Positions 17,390 through 56,015 of a DNA stretch of 64,000 nucleotides are shown piece after piece. Source of the stretch: Nitrospirota bacterium (GTDB lineage: Bacteria > Nitrospirota > Nitrospiria > JACQBW01); contig JACOTA010000011.1 in the NCBI GenBank assembly GCA_016178585.1, positions 20,341 through 84,340 on the forward strand, read 5' to 3'. Within the stretch, counting starts at the first letter, position 1. Every line of letters begins with the position of its first letter. The translations under genes were made by a program, and so were the position numbers. The notes beneath the pieces are model-generated. The model searched no databases. It was given only the letters and a program-made list of their open reading frames with translations, and had not been told where the DNA came from.

Positions 17390-17415
17390 AAAGATATTAA
17401 TTGAAGGAGATGATT

Positions 17416-17778
17416 ATGTCTACAGCCGCGAGGCAAAGACTCACGCGTGTAAAAAAGTCCGATAACCCTTTGGTTGAAATCCGTCACCTGTTAAATCCTT
17501 CGGATGAAGAGCTTTCCCTTTTGTTGAATACCGGCATCCGAACCGTATACCGCTGGCTTGAAGATGGCCCTCCAGGTCAACATTACCCTTTGATTAAATT
17601 GGAGGAGCTGATCGACCTTGCCAAAAAGTCCCTGAAACCCGAAGCGATCGCAGAATGGTTCCACGAATCCAACCGGGCGTTGGGAGGCTCAATTCCAATA
17701 CGTCTTATCTTGGATCCTCACGGTTTTGATCTGGTCCGCCAGGAACTGGGGAATGCTGCATCCGGAATGCCGTTGTGA
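17416..17778 (+). CDS. Xre-like/DUF2384 antitoxin of RES-Xre toxin-antitoxin pair (MbcA/ParS-like)
   Basis: About 120 aa. An ATG at 17416 lies 6-7 nt after a GAAGGAG RBS, and the track ORF from the TTG at 17401 is in frame. The C-terminal region (…AIAEWFHESNRALGGSIPIRLI…GFDLVRQELG) matches the toxin-binding DUF2384 domain. The gene overlaps the downstream RES gene by 4 nt. Confidence 0.65.
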   Translation: MSTAARQRLTRVKKSDNPLVEIRHLLNPSDEELSLLLNTGIRTVYRWLEDGPPGQHYPLIKLEELIDLAKKSLKPEAIAEWFHESNRALGGSIPIRLILDPHGFDLVRQELGNAASGMPL

Positions 17779-18314
17779 CCCCTGAGCCGGACCAGCGGTT
17801 TTATTCCCAATTGAAAAATATTTCTCTTCGCTCTCTCACCGGAGTTTACTACCGCACTGTTCCGGAACAGGCAGCAGACTACATCCTTGAGGATGGCCCC
17901 TCCTATCTATTCAAAAACCGCTATAATATTTTTAACGAATTTGGCGCCCTTTACTTTGGCGACCGGGAAGAGGTGTGCAGAGCGACTTTTGAAAAACGGG
18001 GTCTCCTTTCCTCCCGCCGTCTCTCATTTGTTCTCGTCAGCTTTGATATAGAGGTAGACGGGCTCCTCGACCTAACAGATACTGATAACCTAAAGGTTTT
18101 AAAACTTCAGCGGGAGGATTTGGTTCAAACCCGGGAAAAACCAGCGGCTTACGATATTCCCCAGAGATTGGCAAAAGCGGCTTATCAGAGCGGCCGGATT
18201 CTGGGTCTTCATGTCCCCGACGCGTCTGAAACAGGAAATACCCTGGTCCTTTATCCTGGAAGAATTCTGTCTAAACAGATTGTCCGAGTTCGTGAAAAAG
18301 TTCTCTTAAAATAA
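17775..18314 (+). CDS. RES domain toxin (RES-Xre TA family, putative NAD+-targeting)
   Basis: 179 aa with the typical RES-family pattern (…YYRTVPEQAAD…NRYNIFNEFGALYFGDREEVCRATFEKRG…LVSFDIEV…). It is operonic with the upstream antitoxin. Confidence 0.6.
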   Translation: MTPEPDQRFYSQLKNISLRSLTGVYYRTVPEQAADYILEDGPSYLFKNRYNIFNEFGALYFGDREEVCRATFEKRGLLSSRRLSFVLVSFDIEVDGLLDLTDTDNLKVLKLQREDLVQTREKPAAYDIPQRLAKAAYQSGRILGLHVPDASETGNTLVLYPGRILSKQIVRVREKVLLK

Positions 18315-18568
18315 TGGAATTGAACTAAATTAAATCAATCCCCTTTACGCAATTGATTTGAAAAAAAAGATCCTTATCAGCAATCCGTTGTTTCTGTAAT
18401 TAACACCTTTGCAGCCCTCAAAAATATTGAACACTTCAAATGGGATTAAATGATTTATTTCGTATAGCGGGATTTATTTCTCACAAACAATAGGCATAAA
18501 TTTGACTTTTTTCCTCCCTTAGAATAAATTCTAGATTCATTTTCAAGTAATAAAGAGAATCTGTCTTT

Positions 18569-19708
18569 ATGAATTCAAAAATTAAGATTCTGATTTTTGG
18601 TTTATTTGTTTGTTTTCTTGTTGTTTTAACATCATATCTTTATCTTAATCATTCAAATAATCAAGTTATCTCCACCTTAGAAAAACCGGATCAGCCATTA
18701 AAAAATCCTCTCTTACCAGATCTTCAAGAACGCATTAAACCTGACATTGCCAAACAAGGGAAAAAAATCGAAATTGATGAAAAATCTCCCCTGCAACAAA
18801 AATCTGCCAGTCCAAAAAAACATCTTTTGAAAGGAATAAAAAAAACCGGGGATACTGATCATTTGTTTCAAAATAAGATATTTCCTTCACAGGAGGCCTT
18901 AATTGCGAACCCATCGTCTTCCGGAGAGGAAAGAGAAATTTATACAGTCGTTGCTCCATATGTGGCCCTTGATGGATATGAAATCATGAAAAAAACATTA
19001 AAAATTAAAAGACCCAGAGATGAGTCTACTACGGTTACATTTCGTCTCATTTTCAAAGAAAAAGATGAAAAGAGTATTGTTACCAAACGATATTGGAAAC
19101 AGTTTGATGAAAAAGATGACATCCAATCAAAAACTCTTATCTTAGTTGATGACGCTGGAAGTGCAGAGTTTAGATGGACTGTTTTAATGATGACCGCTTT
19201 TGTGGTCAATCCAGAGGATGAAATTTCTTGGATTCTTCCGTCTTTAAGGAAAAAGGAGCTTGAAATCACACATGCTAAGGATGGGAACTTTTTAGGTTCG
19301 GATTTTACTATTGAAGATTTATCAGACCAGAAACTTGGAGAAGGAGAACACCATTTCTTGAGACAAGAAGATTGCAGGAGTGGCGGTAGAGAAAAATGTT
19401 ACCTTGTGGAGACAATATTTAAAAAAGGGCCCTATAGTAAACAGATTCGTTGGATAAAGGAGCAAGATTTTACGACGACGAAAATCGAGCACTATGATCA
19501 AAAAGGGAATCTTTTTAAAACTCAGTACATAGATTGGCAAACAATAGACGACTATAAGGTATGGCTCAGTTCGGAAATGGTAAATAATCAAAACATGCAT
19601 AAAACAAAATATGATATTTCGTTTTTAAAAATAAATTCAAACTTAAAAGACAGCCTGTTTGATATAAAGTCATATACAACAAAAGGAAATTGGAAAAATT
19701 TGCCTTGA
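18569..19708 (+). CDS. LolA-like outer-membrane lipoprotein-sorting family protein (DUF/LolA_like), secreted
   Basis: 379 aa with an N-terminal signal/TM. The C-terminal region carries the hallmark GSDFTIEDL motif of LolA-like proteins. The coding sequence is very AT-rich (about 30% GC). Confidence 0.5.
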   Translation: MNSKIKILIFGLFVCFLVVLTSYLYLNHSNNQVISTLEKPDQPLKNPLLPDLQERIKPDIAKQGKKIEIDEKSPLQQKSASPKKHLLKGIKKTGDTDHLFQNKIFPSQEALIANPSSSGEEREIYTVVAPYVALDGYEIMKKTLKIKRPRDESTTVTFRLIFKEKDEKSIVTKRYWKQFDEKDDIQSKTLILVDDAGSAEFRWTVLMMTAFVVNPEDEISWILPSLRKKELEITHAKDGNFLGSDFTIEDLSDQKLGEGEHHFLRQEDCRSGGREKCYLVETIFKKGPYSKQIRWIKEQDFTTTKIEHYDQKGNLFKTQYIDWQTIDDYKVWLSSEMVNNQNMHKTKYDISFLKINSNLKDSLFDIKSYTTKGNWKNLP

Positions 19709-19963
19709 GTGGATTAAAAAATTTCCGACTTATAGGAAGAGGTTTTCTGATAACAATAGTTTTTGTAAAAATCAGAATAGGATTGTTCCTCCAAAAAATA
19801 GAAAGGTACTTCCTGAAACAGCCGTAACATCTATACCACGATACACTATTTCTACCGGCATTCAACAAAAAAGGTTATCCATTTTGTCAAGAATGACATT
19901 AAAGCGTTCAACGATTTCCGCTGGCATCAGCATTTCCATGGTTTTCTATCTTCGATTATAGAT

Positions 19964-19992
19964 TTGCAAAGTTTATGGTTATTCATTAATAT
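19964..19992 (+). promoter_or_regulatory. sigma70-like promoter candidate (TTGCAA-17 nt-TAATAT) reading into cassette array; followed by direct repeats CCAGATAC CAGATAC and core site GTTGGGC (20014-20020)
   Basis: TTGCAA at 19964-19969 and TAATAT at 19987-19992. A tandem CAGATAC x2 lies at 19993-20007, and the GTTRRRY-type core GTTGGGC at 20014-20020 sits exactly at the AT-to-GC composition jump. Confidence 0.35.
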
Positions 19993-20049
19993 CCAGATAC
20001 CAGATACTTAATTGTTGGGCTTGCTGTTTCATTGCAGTAGAGGTCTTTC

Positions 20050-20424
20050 ATGGCCAAGAAACCGAAGCGCGACCCAGAGCGCGAGGAGCGCATCATGATG
20101 GAGATCGTCGTCGATGCCTATGGCGCACAAGAAAGGGCGATGGGGTGGTACTACTATCTGGAAGACCAGCTCCAGTTTCCGTTCACGGCGATTTGCACTA
20201 CCAAGCGAGCTATTTCTCCTCTCCGCGTGAAAGATGAGGTCGAGGTCATCGGGACGTGCGGTGAGGATGAATGTGAACACGAGATATTTGTCACGATCCG
20301 CTGGGAGAAGGAGGGTCTGGCCGTGCCGTTAGCGCAGCTGAAGCCGATCAGCGAGACGGAAGAACGGACGAAGGAGGCGGTAGCAGATTGGCATTACTGG
20401 GTTCAGATGGGTTATGAGTTCTGA
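20050..20424 (+). CDS. CcbP-like acidic calcium-binding protein family (cassette gene)
   Basis: 124 aa, acidic (MAKKPKRDPEREERIMMEIVVDAYGAQERAMGWYYYLEDQLQFPF…EDECEHEIFVTIRWEKEGLAVPL…WHYWVQMGYEF). The family assignment is from memory of CcbP-like calcium-binding proteins. Confidence 0.5.
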   Translation: MAKKPKRDPEREERIMMEIVVDAYGAQERAMGWYYYLEDQLQFPFTAICTTKRAISPLRVKDEVEVIGTCGEDECEHEIFVTIRWEKEGLAVPLAQLKPISETEERTKEAVADWHYWVQMGYEF

Positions 20425-21003
20425 GAAAGGCGAGCCGATCGCATAAAGCCGTCGCATTTGAGGGGCATTATTTTGTGGCGGCTCACCCTAATCGTTGAGA
20501 CTGTAGAAATGCCTCCCCGCGAAAACTTTTGGAGAAACTTGAAACACGAGACTGCGTAGAATGCCCTATATTGAACGATCGGATACCTGGGAAGGGTTCT
20601 CTCAGACACCCTCCCTAAATCGATTGTATGGATGCTCCAAGTACTTCTTCTACGGGCTCGTTATGAAGTATTTTCTCGGTAATCATCAAATTTTATGGTC
20701 TCCATTTTCGATAAATCAAAGGTGGACACTCCGCCGAGAGCTGCTTCCTGAAGTCGAGTAATTGGGAACATTCTTATTCGTTGTAGATTTCAAGTGGAAA
20801 GCGGAAGATCTTATGCTGATCCGCATATGACGCCATCATAACAAGGTCTAATTGATGCAAGTAGCCGAGACTTAGGAGGTTATGAGAGTTGTATTATCCG
20901 AATCGCCCGTATATTATATGGATCGGGAACCGATGTTTCGCAGATTATGCGGATCAATCTAACCATAGTTAGGCGGCTTAACAACCGGCGGCGGAGGTAG
21001 CAG

Positions 21004-21405
21004 ATGGGACCTGATGAACGAGAAATCCGCGAGGTTCATTCGACCTGGATCAATGCCGTCAATGCCGGCGATCTGGTTCGCTTGCTCACGTTGATGGCGG
21101 ACGATGTCGTGTTCCTCAATCCGGGCCAAGCGCCGTTCGGCCGGGATGGATTCTCCGCCAACTTCTCGGCCGCGCACCAACAGGCTCGGATCCGTTGCAG
21201 CAGCGAGTTGGAAGAGGTCGTAGTCATCGGCGAAGTCGCGTACACTCGGAGCCGGGACGCGTTGTCGGTGACCCCGCGCGCAGGCGGGGAAGCGACGCAG
21301 CTCGCCGGTCATCGGATCACGGTATACCGCAAACAGCCCGACGGCCGCTGGCTCTTGTCCCGCGATGCCCATACGCTGTCCCCGGTTGAGGAATTGAGAT
21401 CGTAA
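21004..21405 (+). CDS. NTF2-like / SgcJ-EcaC (DUF4440) family protein (cassette gene)
   Basis: 133 aa (…IREVHSTWINAVNAGDLVRLLTLMADDVVFLNPGQAPFGRDGF…) with the typical SnoaL/DUF4440 N-terminal motif. It starts 30 nt after a GTTAGGC core. Confidence 0.65.
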   Translation: MGPDEREIREVHSTWINAVNAGDLVRLLTLMADDVVFLNPGQAPFGRDGFSANFSAAHQQARIRCSSELEEVVVIGEVAYTRSRDALSVTPRAGGEATQLAGHRITVYRKQPDGRWLLSRDAHTLSPVEELRS

Positions 21406-21437
21406 GAAAGGCGTTCTCGGCGGCATAAAGGTACGCC

Positions 21438-21497
21438 GCCTAACAATTCATTCAAGCCGACGCCGCTTCGCGGCGCGGCTTAATTCAGACGTTAGGC
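21438..21497 (+). repeat. integron attC site (59-be), aadA-type
   Basis: GCCTAACAATTCATTCAAGCCGACGCCGCTTCGCGGCGCGGCTTAATTCAGACGTTAGGC. It has an R'' inverse core GCCTAAC, a palindromic centre GCCGACGCCGC/GCGGCGCGGC and an R' core GTTAGGC. From memory it is near-identical to the aadA1 59-base element (…CTAACAATTCGTTCAAGCCGACGCCGCTTCGCGGCGCGGCTTAACTCAAGCGTTAGAT). Confidence 0.75.
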
Positions 21498-21504
21498 CTC
21501 GGGT

Positions 21505-22326
21505 ATGTCGCGCAATCGCATAACCATCCTCCATGACTCGTTCGGAAAGCGCGCCGACCTGACCAAGGATTGGGGTTTTGCCGCGCTGGTCGAGTTCGCC
21601 GGAAAGCGCATCTTGTTCGATACCGGCAACAATGCGCGGACCTTTGCTCAAAACACTGAGGCACTTGGCGTCGATCTGCGGAAACTTGACTTTGCGGCAA
21701 TCTCTCATCGACATGGCGACCACACAAGCGGGCTGAACCACCTGTTTAAGCTAAATCCCGGCATAACGGTGTATACGCCCGACGAGACGTACGGAGTTTT
21801 CGGTTCCAGTCTTCCCGGCATCTTCTATCCGCGCTGCCATTCGCTTCCGGCATATATGCAGTACTACGATGGTCAGCCGCCGGAAACTATTCGCCACGGG
21901 ACACCATGGCCGGAGGCCAAATTCGTCTGGGTCAAGGAGACGACTGAGATCGCCCAAGATGTCTGGCTAGTCGCGGTGGTTTCGGACATGCCGGGCACTC
22001 GCGAGATGCGTGAGCTGTCTCTGGCACTGCGGACACCTCGCGGATTGGTTCTAGTGGCGGGCTGCTCTCATCCAGGAATCGAGAATATTCTCGCAGCGTC
22101 GCGTGCGGTCTACGACCACCTCTACTGTATTTTCGGAGGCCTTCATCTAGTTTTGACAAAGGAGCCAGAAATTCGACGCATCGCAAATGCTCTACGCGAG
22201 CAATGGCGCGTGGATCAGATTGCGCCCGGACACTGCACCGGCGAGCCCGCATTCCTGGCACTAAGCGAAGCGTTCGGAGAAAGATACATATGCGCTGGTT
22301 TGGGAGACACAATTGATCTTCCCTGA
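21505..22326 (+). CDS. MBL-fold metallo-hydrolase (cassette gene)
   Basis: 273 aa with an HxHxDH motif (AISHRHGDHTSGLNHL) and downstream His/Asp ligands. The ATG lies 8 nt after the attC R' core. Confidence 0.75.
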   Translation: MSRNRITILHDSFGKRADLTKDWGFAALVEFAGKRILFDTGNNARTFAQNTEALGVDLRKLDFAAISHRHGDHTSGLNHLFKLNPGITVYTPDETYGVFGSSLPGIFYPRCHSLPAYMQYYDGQPPETIRHGTPWPEAKFVWVKETTEIAQDVWLVAVVSDMPGTREMRELSLALRTPRGLVLVAGCSHPGIENILAASRAVYDHLYCIFGGLHLVLTKEPEIRRIANALREQWRVDQIAPGHCTGEPAFLALSEAFGERYICAGLGDTIDLP

Positions 22327-22343
22327 CCCGACGACTTCACTAG

Positions 22344-22401
22344 GCCTAACCACGCTTTGCAGCCGACGCGCAAACGGCGCGGCTGAATGCGGACGTTATG
22401 C
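22344..22401 (+). repeat. integron attC site
   Basis: GCCTAACCACGCTTTGCAGCCGACGCGCAAACGGCGCGGCTGAATGCGGACGTTATGC. It has the same R''/centre/R' organisation as attC1, with a bulged imperfect palindrome. Confidence 0.65.
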
Positions 22402-55836: not shown

Positions 55837-55900
55837 GACGGATTGTGGAATGGTCGTAGTTAGACCGAGACGGATTGTGGAATGGTCGTAGTTAGACCGA
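55837..55900 (+). repeat. perfect tandem duplication, 2 x 32 nt (GACGGATTGTGGAATGGTCGTAGTTAGACCGA), followed by a degenerate third unit
   Basis: Positions 55837-55868 and 55869-55900 are identical. The next ~30 nt (GCGGAACGCGGGGTTCGGGGGCAT…) share weak periodicity with the unit. Confidence 0.9.
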
Positions 55901-56015
55901 GCGGAACGCGGGGTTCGGGGGCATTGAGAGCGGAGCGAGCAGGCCCCTGAGTCTAATAAGATCATGGGTCGATGTCTGGAACCGGCTGATGACGAGGAAG
56001 AAAGGGTAGCGAAAA

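Follow-up and report, generated by a model that had tools for sequence, protein, structure and literature searches.

The array considered here lies in a window of 64,000 nucleotides (the whole stretch of DNA that was analysed) belonging to a Nitrospirae MAG, where it occupies the space between a LolA-like gene and suhB/mutS. In order, its four segments carry a CcbP-family gene, 474 bp without a recognisable gene, a SnoaL gene and a gene for a protein of metallo-beta-lactamase fold. Unless stated otherwise, the features described below are on the plus strand.

The LolA-like (outer-membrane lipoprotein-sorting-like) gene spans 18569-19708 (Pfam PF17131, E=1.4e-26) and has a G+C content of 34%. 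A search of 5.8 billion proteins returned, besides the protein itself, a single match at 28% identity; by this measure the gene is essentially an orphan. Upstream, an Xre-antitoxin/RES-toxin pair (17401-18314) is followed by a block of 30-34% GC that holds the LolA-like gene, and the entire region from an M50 peptidase gene to suhB/mutS, array included, looks like a small composite island. No transposase was found in the 64-kb window. Relatives of SuhB in GTDB representative genomes are no more than 51% identical to it, and the contigs that encode exact copies of the SuhB, CcbP, SnoaL or LolA-like proteins have the identical arrangement and come from the same MAG and sample series. Elsewhere in the window, at 55837-55905, a 32-nt unit (GACGGATTGTGGAATGGTCGTAGTTAGACCGA) is present in 2.2 tandem copies with 97% identity.

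Organization of the Cassette Array

The first segment (20015-20494) consists of a CcbP-family ORF of 124 aa (20050-20424; PF11535, E=2.9e-40), with the ribosome-binding sequence GAGG at 20040-20043 ahead of its ATG at 20050, and of a degenerate attC. The encoded protein has 3877 homologues, many of them 75-92% identical and mostly on short contigs. Its attC (20434-20500) reads GCCGATC at R'' (20434-20440), where GCCCAAC is expected, and GTTGAGA at R' (20494-20500). The site is homologous to a full-length attC located 3' of the CcbP gene in another locus (L121), and it folds no better than shuffled sequences (z=0.23). The second segment (20495-20968) is the gene-less one of 474 bp; a Pfam search with the small ORFs in 20425-20990 gave no match, and its 3' end is a collapsed, non-hairpin site, TCTAAC CATA G↓TT, the arrow marking the crossover point.

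The SnoaL/DUF4440 (SgcJ/EcaC-type) cassette follows at about 20969-21497, with its ORF at 21004-21405 (identified by Pfam) and a canonical attC at 21438-21497 whose hairpin has a z of -4.9. The sequence of the site shares about 90% identity with the aadB/aadA-type attC of class 1 integrons, so the Nitrospirae MAG holds a cassette of the same attC lineage; sites of this type are present in thousands of clinical class 1 integron plasmids. The SnoaL protein has about 2900 homologues. The best 120 have identities of 86-100%, and MAGs named Nitrospirae, Acidobacteria and Byssovorax are among their sources. The number and identity of these homologues suggest that the cassette is very widely shared; plasmid matches reach 41-45% identity only, and no homologue of the SnoaL cassette was found among the loci fetched for comparison.

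The metallo-beta-lactamase-fold cassette (about 21492-22401) is the final one ahead of suhB/mutS, with its ORF at 21505-22326 (by Pfam) and its attC at 22344-22401 (by scan and fold). A weak precomputed match of its protein to PF23023 (Anti-Pycsar Apyc1) was recorded, and the protein may be a candidate cyclic-nucleotide-degrading enzyme carried as a cassette. In both canonical cassettes, SnoaL and metallo-beta-lactamase-fold, the R'' of the attC (GCCTAAC) pairs exactly with G followed by TTAGGC, the 5' sequence of the cassette itself. An R'' complementary to the cassette's own 5' end is the signature of a circularisable cassette.

A CALIN is defined by at least two close attCs in the same orientation and by the lack of an integron integrase within 4 kb. 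The array has two such canonical sites (21438-21497 and 22344-22401), besides the two degenerate ones, and no integrase is present within that distance or anywhere in the 64 kb. It is therefore an integrase-less cassette array (CALIN) in a Nitrospirae MAG.

Promoter, Repeats and Core at the Head of the Array

The stretch 19709-20049, between the LolA-like gene and the CcbP start codon, contains no plus-strand ORF of at least 50 aa. A minus-strand ORF of 100 aa (19566-19868) overlaps the 3' end of the LolA-like gene and had no match in a Pfam search. The head itself is an AT-rich, non-coding module (19761-20013), of which the portion 19761-19871 shows patchy, collinear homology to a second locus (L045, described below), while the downstream part forms a promoter block.

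The predicted promoter within this block (19964-19992) is of the sigma70 type and faces the cassettes as a Pc promoter does; it combines TTGCAA (19964-19969) and TAATAT (19987-19992) across a 17-nt spacer, and its -10 hexamer ends 21 nt 5' of the crossover G. A preliminary description of this DNA had called the promoter a good one. The hexamers and the spacer lie where it placed them, but the adjective overstates a match to 8 of the 12 consensus positions; a promoter scan with a threshold of 9/12 does not list TTGCAA-17-TAATAT. Sites that match the consensus as well or better number 349 in the 64-kb window, 18 of them on the plus strand of the AT-rich interval 18315-20049.

Two other reported features were found exactly where the preliminary description had them. 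Two tandem CAGATAC heptamers (19994-20000 and 20001-20007) follow the promoter and overlap the predicted transcription start. The core GTTGGGC (20014-20020), with the crossover between G20014 and T20015, sits at a composition boundary, the G+C content being 33% to the left (19709-20013) and 55% to the right (20015-20494). The window has three places with perfect tandem heptamers, and GTTRRRY is present 49 times on each strand. Taken alone, the promoter, the heptamers and the GTTRRRY core are each at chance level; the features of the head exceed chance only because they are conserved and recur in register in other contigs.

The 5' Boundary of the CcbP Cassette

The proposal that the GTT at 20014 marks a cassette junction is borne out by contigs in which the same CcbP cassette stands behind a canonical attC. 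In L039, L123/L124 and L121/L122, the CcbP gene lies 3' of a canonical attC ending in GTTAGGC or GTTGAGC, and the attC upstream of CcbP in L039 folds with a z of -4.8. In a five-way alignment, the homology of all loci starts exactly at the TTGGGC/GGCTTGCT motif and extends rightwards, and many more distant CcbP homologues have a GTTGGGC or GTTGGAC core 22-52 nt ahead of the start codon. The attC-linked relatives and the onset of homology together identify TTGGGC as the 5' end of the CcbP cassette and place the DNA to its left outside the cassette. As in an attI site, the crossover falls within G↓TT where the first cassette begins.

The left flank of this boundary is not an attC, having neither a hairpin nor similarity to attC sequences. 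The interval 19940-20025 folds no better than shuffles on either strand (z of 0.14 and -0.25), and the related heads introduced below, including an attI adjacent to an integrase gene (L081), are also unstructured (z of -1.2 to +0.75). The lack of an attC-type hairpin, expected of an attI, is weak evidence for a double-strand-type site, because some true AT-rich attCs fold poorly. A scan for attC sites found no RYYYAAC partner for GTTGGGC within 140 nt, and the promoter block was compared with four attC sequences without a significant match; the R''/R' cores and L''/L' stem hairpin that make up an attC are thus absent from the head junction. The regex-plus-fold attC scanner was too strict for classing all 86 loci, and no frequencies are claimed from it. 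The resemblance of ATTCATT and CTTAATT in the flank to attC 21438-21497, considered as the trace of a decayed attC, was no better than in shuffles and was rejected. The head region had no match among plasmids (blastn) or viral contigs (pattern search).

Conservation of the Head and CcbP as a Unit

Two further contigs carry the head joined to CcbP: L045 (Ga0209810_1006761, 50% GC) and L035 (JGI sample 3300018006, 56% GC), the latter beginning inside the block and so holding no upstream sequence. L035 aligns to window positions 19967-20462 with 92.5% identity, and L045 is 82% identical to the window from TTTGCAA to the junction. In L045, TTGCAA-17-TAATAT is identical to that of the window despite three substitutions in the spacer; in L035 the -10 reads TAATTT and the -35 is cut off by the contig end. 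The promoter hexamers are thus conserved together with the junction in independent contigs. The tandem heptamers are also kept, with both copies altered (TCGAGAA TCGAGAT in L035, GCAGAAA TCAGACA in L045). Block identity to the homologues is 82-87%, against a third-codon-position identity of 76-92% in the linked gene, and these values are so close that the hexamers could owe their conservation to nothing more than co-inheritance.

Upstream of the block, L045 and the window remain collinear, with patchy homology, as far as about 19761. The whole head scores 49 against L045, compared with 12.5 ± 1.8 for shuffles (0/300 reach the score), and the head without the promoter block has a relaxed local score of 24.5, compared with 12.4 ± 2.2 (2/500). 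Since the LolA-like protein, apart from its single distant match, has no homologue elsewhere, the shared module ends short of the LolA-like gene.

The surroundings of the unit differ among the three contigs. Upstream of it, L045 carries the truncated end of a DDE transposase (the last ~56 aa) and a DUF3987 gene, and no attC was found downstream of its CcbP gene; L035 continues downstream into unrelated GC-rich genes. In neither contig is the unit part of an array; it stands there as a solitary gene. A 14-nt inverted repeat near the transposase end in L045, considered in connection with an outward promoter of an IS, is probably due to chance. By sequence comparison, the head, CcbP and the start of the CcbP attC are one module found in three contexts (the window, L045 and L035), and in this subtype of head CcbP is always the joined cassette. 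The crossover itself is damaged in both relatives, reading GT-GGGC in L045 and lacking the G in L035. Together with the decay of the CcbP attC in the window, these indels suggest that the junction between head and CcbP is old and now fixed.

A Family of Related Heads

For a test in register, the 30 nt immediately 5' of G20014 were scored against 86,907 G-anchored sites, taken from either strand of all fetched loci and of the window. The best non-self matches were L045 (23/30), L040 (20/30), L060 (19/30) and L036 (19/30), followed by a next best of 18, and all four are cassette 5' boundaries. The junction sites were picked for comparison after inspection, so these rank statistics are partly post hoc. 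When L040 is compared with the 2100 GTT sites of the window, the head junction scores highest, over 25 nt and over 45 nt alike. Gapped local alignment over about 95-150 nt gave scores reached by 3/300 shuffles for the window and L036 and by 4/300 for L060 and L036; the window and L060 did not align significantly (22/300).

L036 and L040 hold the same CcbP cassette behind a different AT-rich segment of 175 nt. In L036 the related site is located downstream of a canonical attC and hence inside an array rather than at its head. In L060, genes resembling mrfA/mrfB are followed by 374 nt of AT-rich DNA, a GNAT cassette and a CcbP cassette, in that order. The AT-rich DNA ends in ...GTAAGTTATCCAGAAACTTTATACTCACTTG↓TTATGC, directly 5' of the GNAT cassette, and R'' of the GNAT attC (GCATAAC) is the exact complement of G plus TTATGC, which means that the cassette attached at this position to the related head of L060 is a different one. 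Repeated use of the same G↓TT may hold at the level of the family, through the GNAT cassette of L060; the subtype in the window is found only with CcbP.

Sequences related to the head of the array thus recur at other cassette boundaries, once with a different cassette (L060). On these comparisons, the head module is one of a small family, whose members are AT-rich sites of the double-strand type, without secondary structure, located at cassette 5' boundaries in unrelated contigs.

Absence of an Integrase and Comparison with an Integrase-Linked attI

As the preliminary description had observed, no intI is adjacent to the head of the array, the upstream gene being the LolA-like one. Its suggestion of a decayed integron platform fared less well. 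A tblastn search with IntI1 gave a best E of 0.28 in the 64-kb window, and the environmental IntI of L081 gave nothing at E≤1; no intI pseudogene fragment is present in 18.3-20.0 kb or in the whole 64 kb, and a decayed platform is therefore without direct trace. An attI is accompanied by an adjacent intI or a recognisable remnant of one, and the window contains neither. Likewise, no intI or fragment was found upstream of the related heads in L045 (4 kb), L060, L036 (2 kb) and L040 (244 nt). In L050 (964-1056), L051 (3182-3274) and L057 (759-851), the cassette strand encodes, about 700 nt upstream of a CcbP cassette, a stretch of 31 aa that shares 61% identity with the C-terminal end of IntI1; a truncated same-orientation remnant of this kind is absent from the window.

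The only integrase-linked relative of the head is L081, whose intI is 37% identical to IntI1 over 251 aa (E of 1e-43 to 1e-50) and has its start codon about 148 nt from a G↓TTAGGC junction. The 148-nt intergenic region is AT-rich and unstructured and carries TTGACC-17-TATAGT, with a -10 hexamer that ends 21 nt 5' of the crossover G, the same offset as in the window. This 21-nt offset is common to TAATAT (window and L045), TGTTAT (L036/L040), AGTTAT (L060) and L081. The in-register agreement of L081 with the window amounts to 13/25 and 22/45 positions, the latter being rank 29 of 86,722 sites, and that with L036 to 16/25. By gapped local alignment, L081 is not significantly similar to any of the heads. 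Being also the most distant of them, it provides a weak link between the family and an integrase. As regards a Pc promoter, sigma70 hexamers upstream of the crossover and facing the cassettes are present in the window, at 8/12 of the consensus, and the comparisons with L045, L035 and L081 extend their conservation to homologous platforms.

Two details of the attI-like reading in the preliminary description found no clear support. The GTTGGGC core had been taken as part of a simple site; the R box is there, yet no inverted GCCCAAC-like L box was found. The CAGATAC copies, proposed as integrase-binding direct repeats, are unlike the GTTRRRY/RYYYAAC core. They do align in register with CTGTAAC...CTAATAAC of the L081 attI and with CAGAAAC...TCTAAAC of L036, the only likeness of this kind, and they end in ATAC where the aligned boxes of L081 and L036 end in ...AAC.

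Possible Junctions of a Second Type

The junction that leads into the SnoaL cassette (20949-20974, GCGGATCAATCTAACCATAG↓TTAGGC) also lacks a hairpin. Positions 20949-20973 match the junction left of a CcbP cassette at 20/25 sites in L075 and at 19/25 in L074, and its TCTAAC approximates the R'' expected for the 474-bp segment (TCTCAAC). With its inverted CTAAC/GTTAG, it resembles the simple site of an attI more closely than the junction at 20014 does. These features would suit a collapsed attC as well as a delta-attI-like site.

A repeat of about 90 nt (...GGCAAGGTCAATAGCATACGG.GGGGTAATCCTGGTTAATGCAATAATCGGTTTTTATATGGG) is found between unrelated accessory genes in L065 (2711-2745, 3254-3288 and 4826-4860), L074 (2988-3022, 3818-3852 and 5849-5883) and L075 (3286-3320 and 3928-3962). 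A CACGGGC..GCCCGTG hairpin often stands 3' of it, and in L065 a CcbP cassette lies directly 3' of one copy. The repeat is not attC-shaped and has no match in Rfam; it may represent a different kind of cassette boundary. Apart from the last ~30 nt, 20760-20968 of the window resembles this repeat only weakly and not convincingly. A possibility is that the junction at 20949-20974 and the repeats of L065, L074 and L075 mark a second class of non-attC cassette boundary.

Origin of the Head

The head is best explained as an orphaned attI-type site with a Pc-like promoter at the front of a CALIN, now mainly driving CcbP, a reading to which we assign a probability of about one half. Its membership in the family of heads and its in-register likeness to the attI/Pc region of L081 make an attI-type site separated from its integrase the most likely source. 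On this account, the last ~50 bp of the head (19963-20014) would act as the module, comprising the cassette-facing promoter, the two heptamers and the G↓TT crossover to CcbP, and would descend from an attI-type site and Pc promoter that parted from their integrase. Transcription would start near 19999 and proceed into the promoterless CcbP cassette and possibly further downstream, and the heptamers may be former integrase-binding or operator sites. The site itself would now be essentially fixed, recombining only if an integrase were supplied in trans. The fallback offered in the preliminary description, a predicted promoter that simply drives the cassettes, is the best-supported part of that description. 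A broader version of the orphaned-attI reading, in which the family consists of portable "orphan attI-Pc" modules, short AT-rich recombination sites with a promoter but no integrase gene in cis, placed at or inside arrays on diverse chromosomes, where they would rely on trans-acting integrases and found small expressed arrays remote from integron platforms, is considered unlikely.

The main rival, to which we also give a low probability, is insertion at a secondary site of the attG type. An integrase acting in trans would have put the CcbP cassette into a GTT of ordinary AT-rich DNA downstream of a resident promoter, the promoter-gene unit would have been kept through its expression, and the similar flanks would reflect the target preference of the integrase and not attI ancestry. 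Integrases are documented to insert cassettes at genomic GWT sites, and a resident promoter close by then leads to their expression (bioRxiv 10.1101/2022.09.11.507474). The attG and SALIN insertions of that study share with the head a cassette joined at GWT to DNA that is neither attC nor hairpin-forming, and a dependence of expression on a promoter that precedes the point of insertion. The units of L045 and L035, solitary and outside arrays, look like single inserted cassettes, and an origin of this kind would fit the lack of intI in the window and near four of the five related heads. However, the left flank of an attG is the resident DNA of the recipient, whereas the flank in the window moves with the cassette: it is common to L045 and L035, which have other neighbours in unrelated contexts, related flanks occur at other cassette boundaries, and the shared module stops before the LolA-like gene, which lacks a homologue elsewhere. 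In addition, the same 21-nt offset of the -10 hexamer in five types of head, the intI-adjacent attI among them, is hard to obtain by target preference alone. Secondary-site insertion therefore fits the absence of intI, but neither the mobility of the flank nor the fixed hexamer offset.

It is quite improbable that the head was never an att site and is an ordinary promoter and 5' leader of a domesticated CcbP gene, its likeness to L060, L036/L040 and L081 being an AT-rich coincidence. Such an origin agrees with the chance level of every feature taken alone, with a block identity that roughly follows synonymous-site identity, with scores for L060 and L036 that exceed the next best by one base (19 against 18 of 30), and with gapped local alignments to L060 and L081 that are not significant. 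A coincidence, on the other hand, would hardly put all of the four best in-register matches, out of about 87,000 sites, at the exact 5' boundaries of cassettes, nor make the L040 match the best of the 2100 GTT sites in the window at both 25 and 45 nt, nor yield alignments over about 95-150 nt as significant as those of L060 with L036 (4/300) and of the window with L036 (3/300). Finally, a decayed or collapsed attC of a lost upstream cassette, with the LolA-like or a deleted gene as the previous cassette, is very unlikely: a collapsed attC-like site does end the second segment (TCTAAC CATA G↓TT) and the CTTAATT that precedes the GTT is similar to L' of attC 21438-21497, but the head has no hairpin, no RYYYAAC partner within 140 nt and no significant similarity to the four attC sequences compared, and its conserved parts are promoter hexamers, not stem halves.

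Relation to Known Systems and Implications

Compared with known attI/Pc regions, both attI1/Pc of class 1 integrons (seen in L006) and that of L081, the head shares the position at the 5' boundary of the first cassette, the G↓TT crossover, an unstructured and AT-rich composition, short direct repeats before the crossover and a sigma70-type promoter facing the cassettes, whose -10 lies 21 nt from the G as in L081. It differs in having no intI in 64 kb and no inverted L box. From attI1 in particular it is distinguished by repeats without the GTTA core of DR1/DR2 and by an in-register match of only 6/25, with no sequence similarity.

As a CALIN, the array has the usual attributes of at least two canonical same-orientation attCs within 1 kb, promoterless small ORFs, no integrase nearby and a G+C content different from that of the host; the attCs of its first two segments are degenerate. 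The head does not enter into the definition of a CALIN; here it is a conserved, promoter-bearing module common to other contigs. A further parallel is found in the delta-attI-type gene cassettes (Sci Rep 2026, PMC12901181), in which attI-derived sites inside mobile integron arrays replace attC and are carried with the cassettes. The related site inside the L036 array, and possibly 20949-20974 of the window, are comparable; the published sites differ in being fragments of attI1 or attI2 from clinical class 1 and 2 integrons that were shown to recombine with IntI1.

The origin and expression of CALINs are debated, with integron decay set against insertion at genomic sites. According to Loot et al. 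(bioRxiv 10.1101/2022.09.11.507474), small CALINs and SALINs may arise by genomic insertion, and 95% of CALINs have no intI pseudogene nearby. The head of the CALIN in the window is a conserved module and not arbitrary DNA; its predicted promoter stands at a fixed distance from the crossover, and the module recurs at other cassette boundaries. An integrase-less array with an upstream promoter is to be expected; the recurrence of related heads without integrases is less ordinary.

Thus, the locus is a CALIN whose conserved, promoter-bearing head probably derives from an attI, a modest addition to what is known of such arrays. If the heads of this family are true attI-type sites and function with no integrase next to them, new cassette arrays could arise and be expressed at a great distance from integron platforms, and surveys keyed to intI would undercount active sites of cassette capture.
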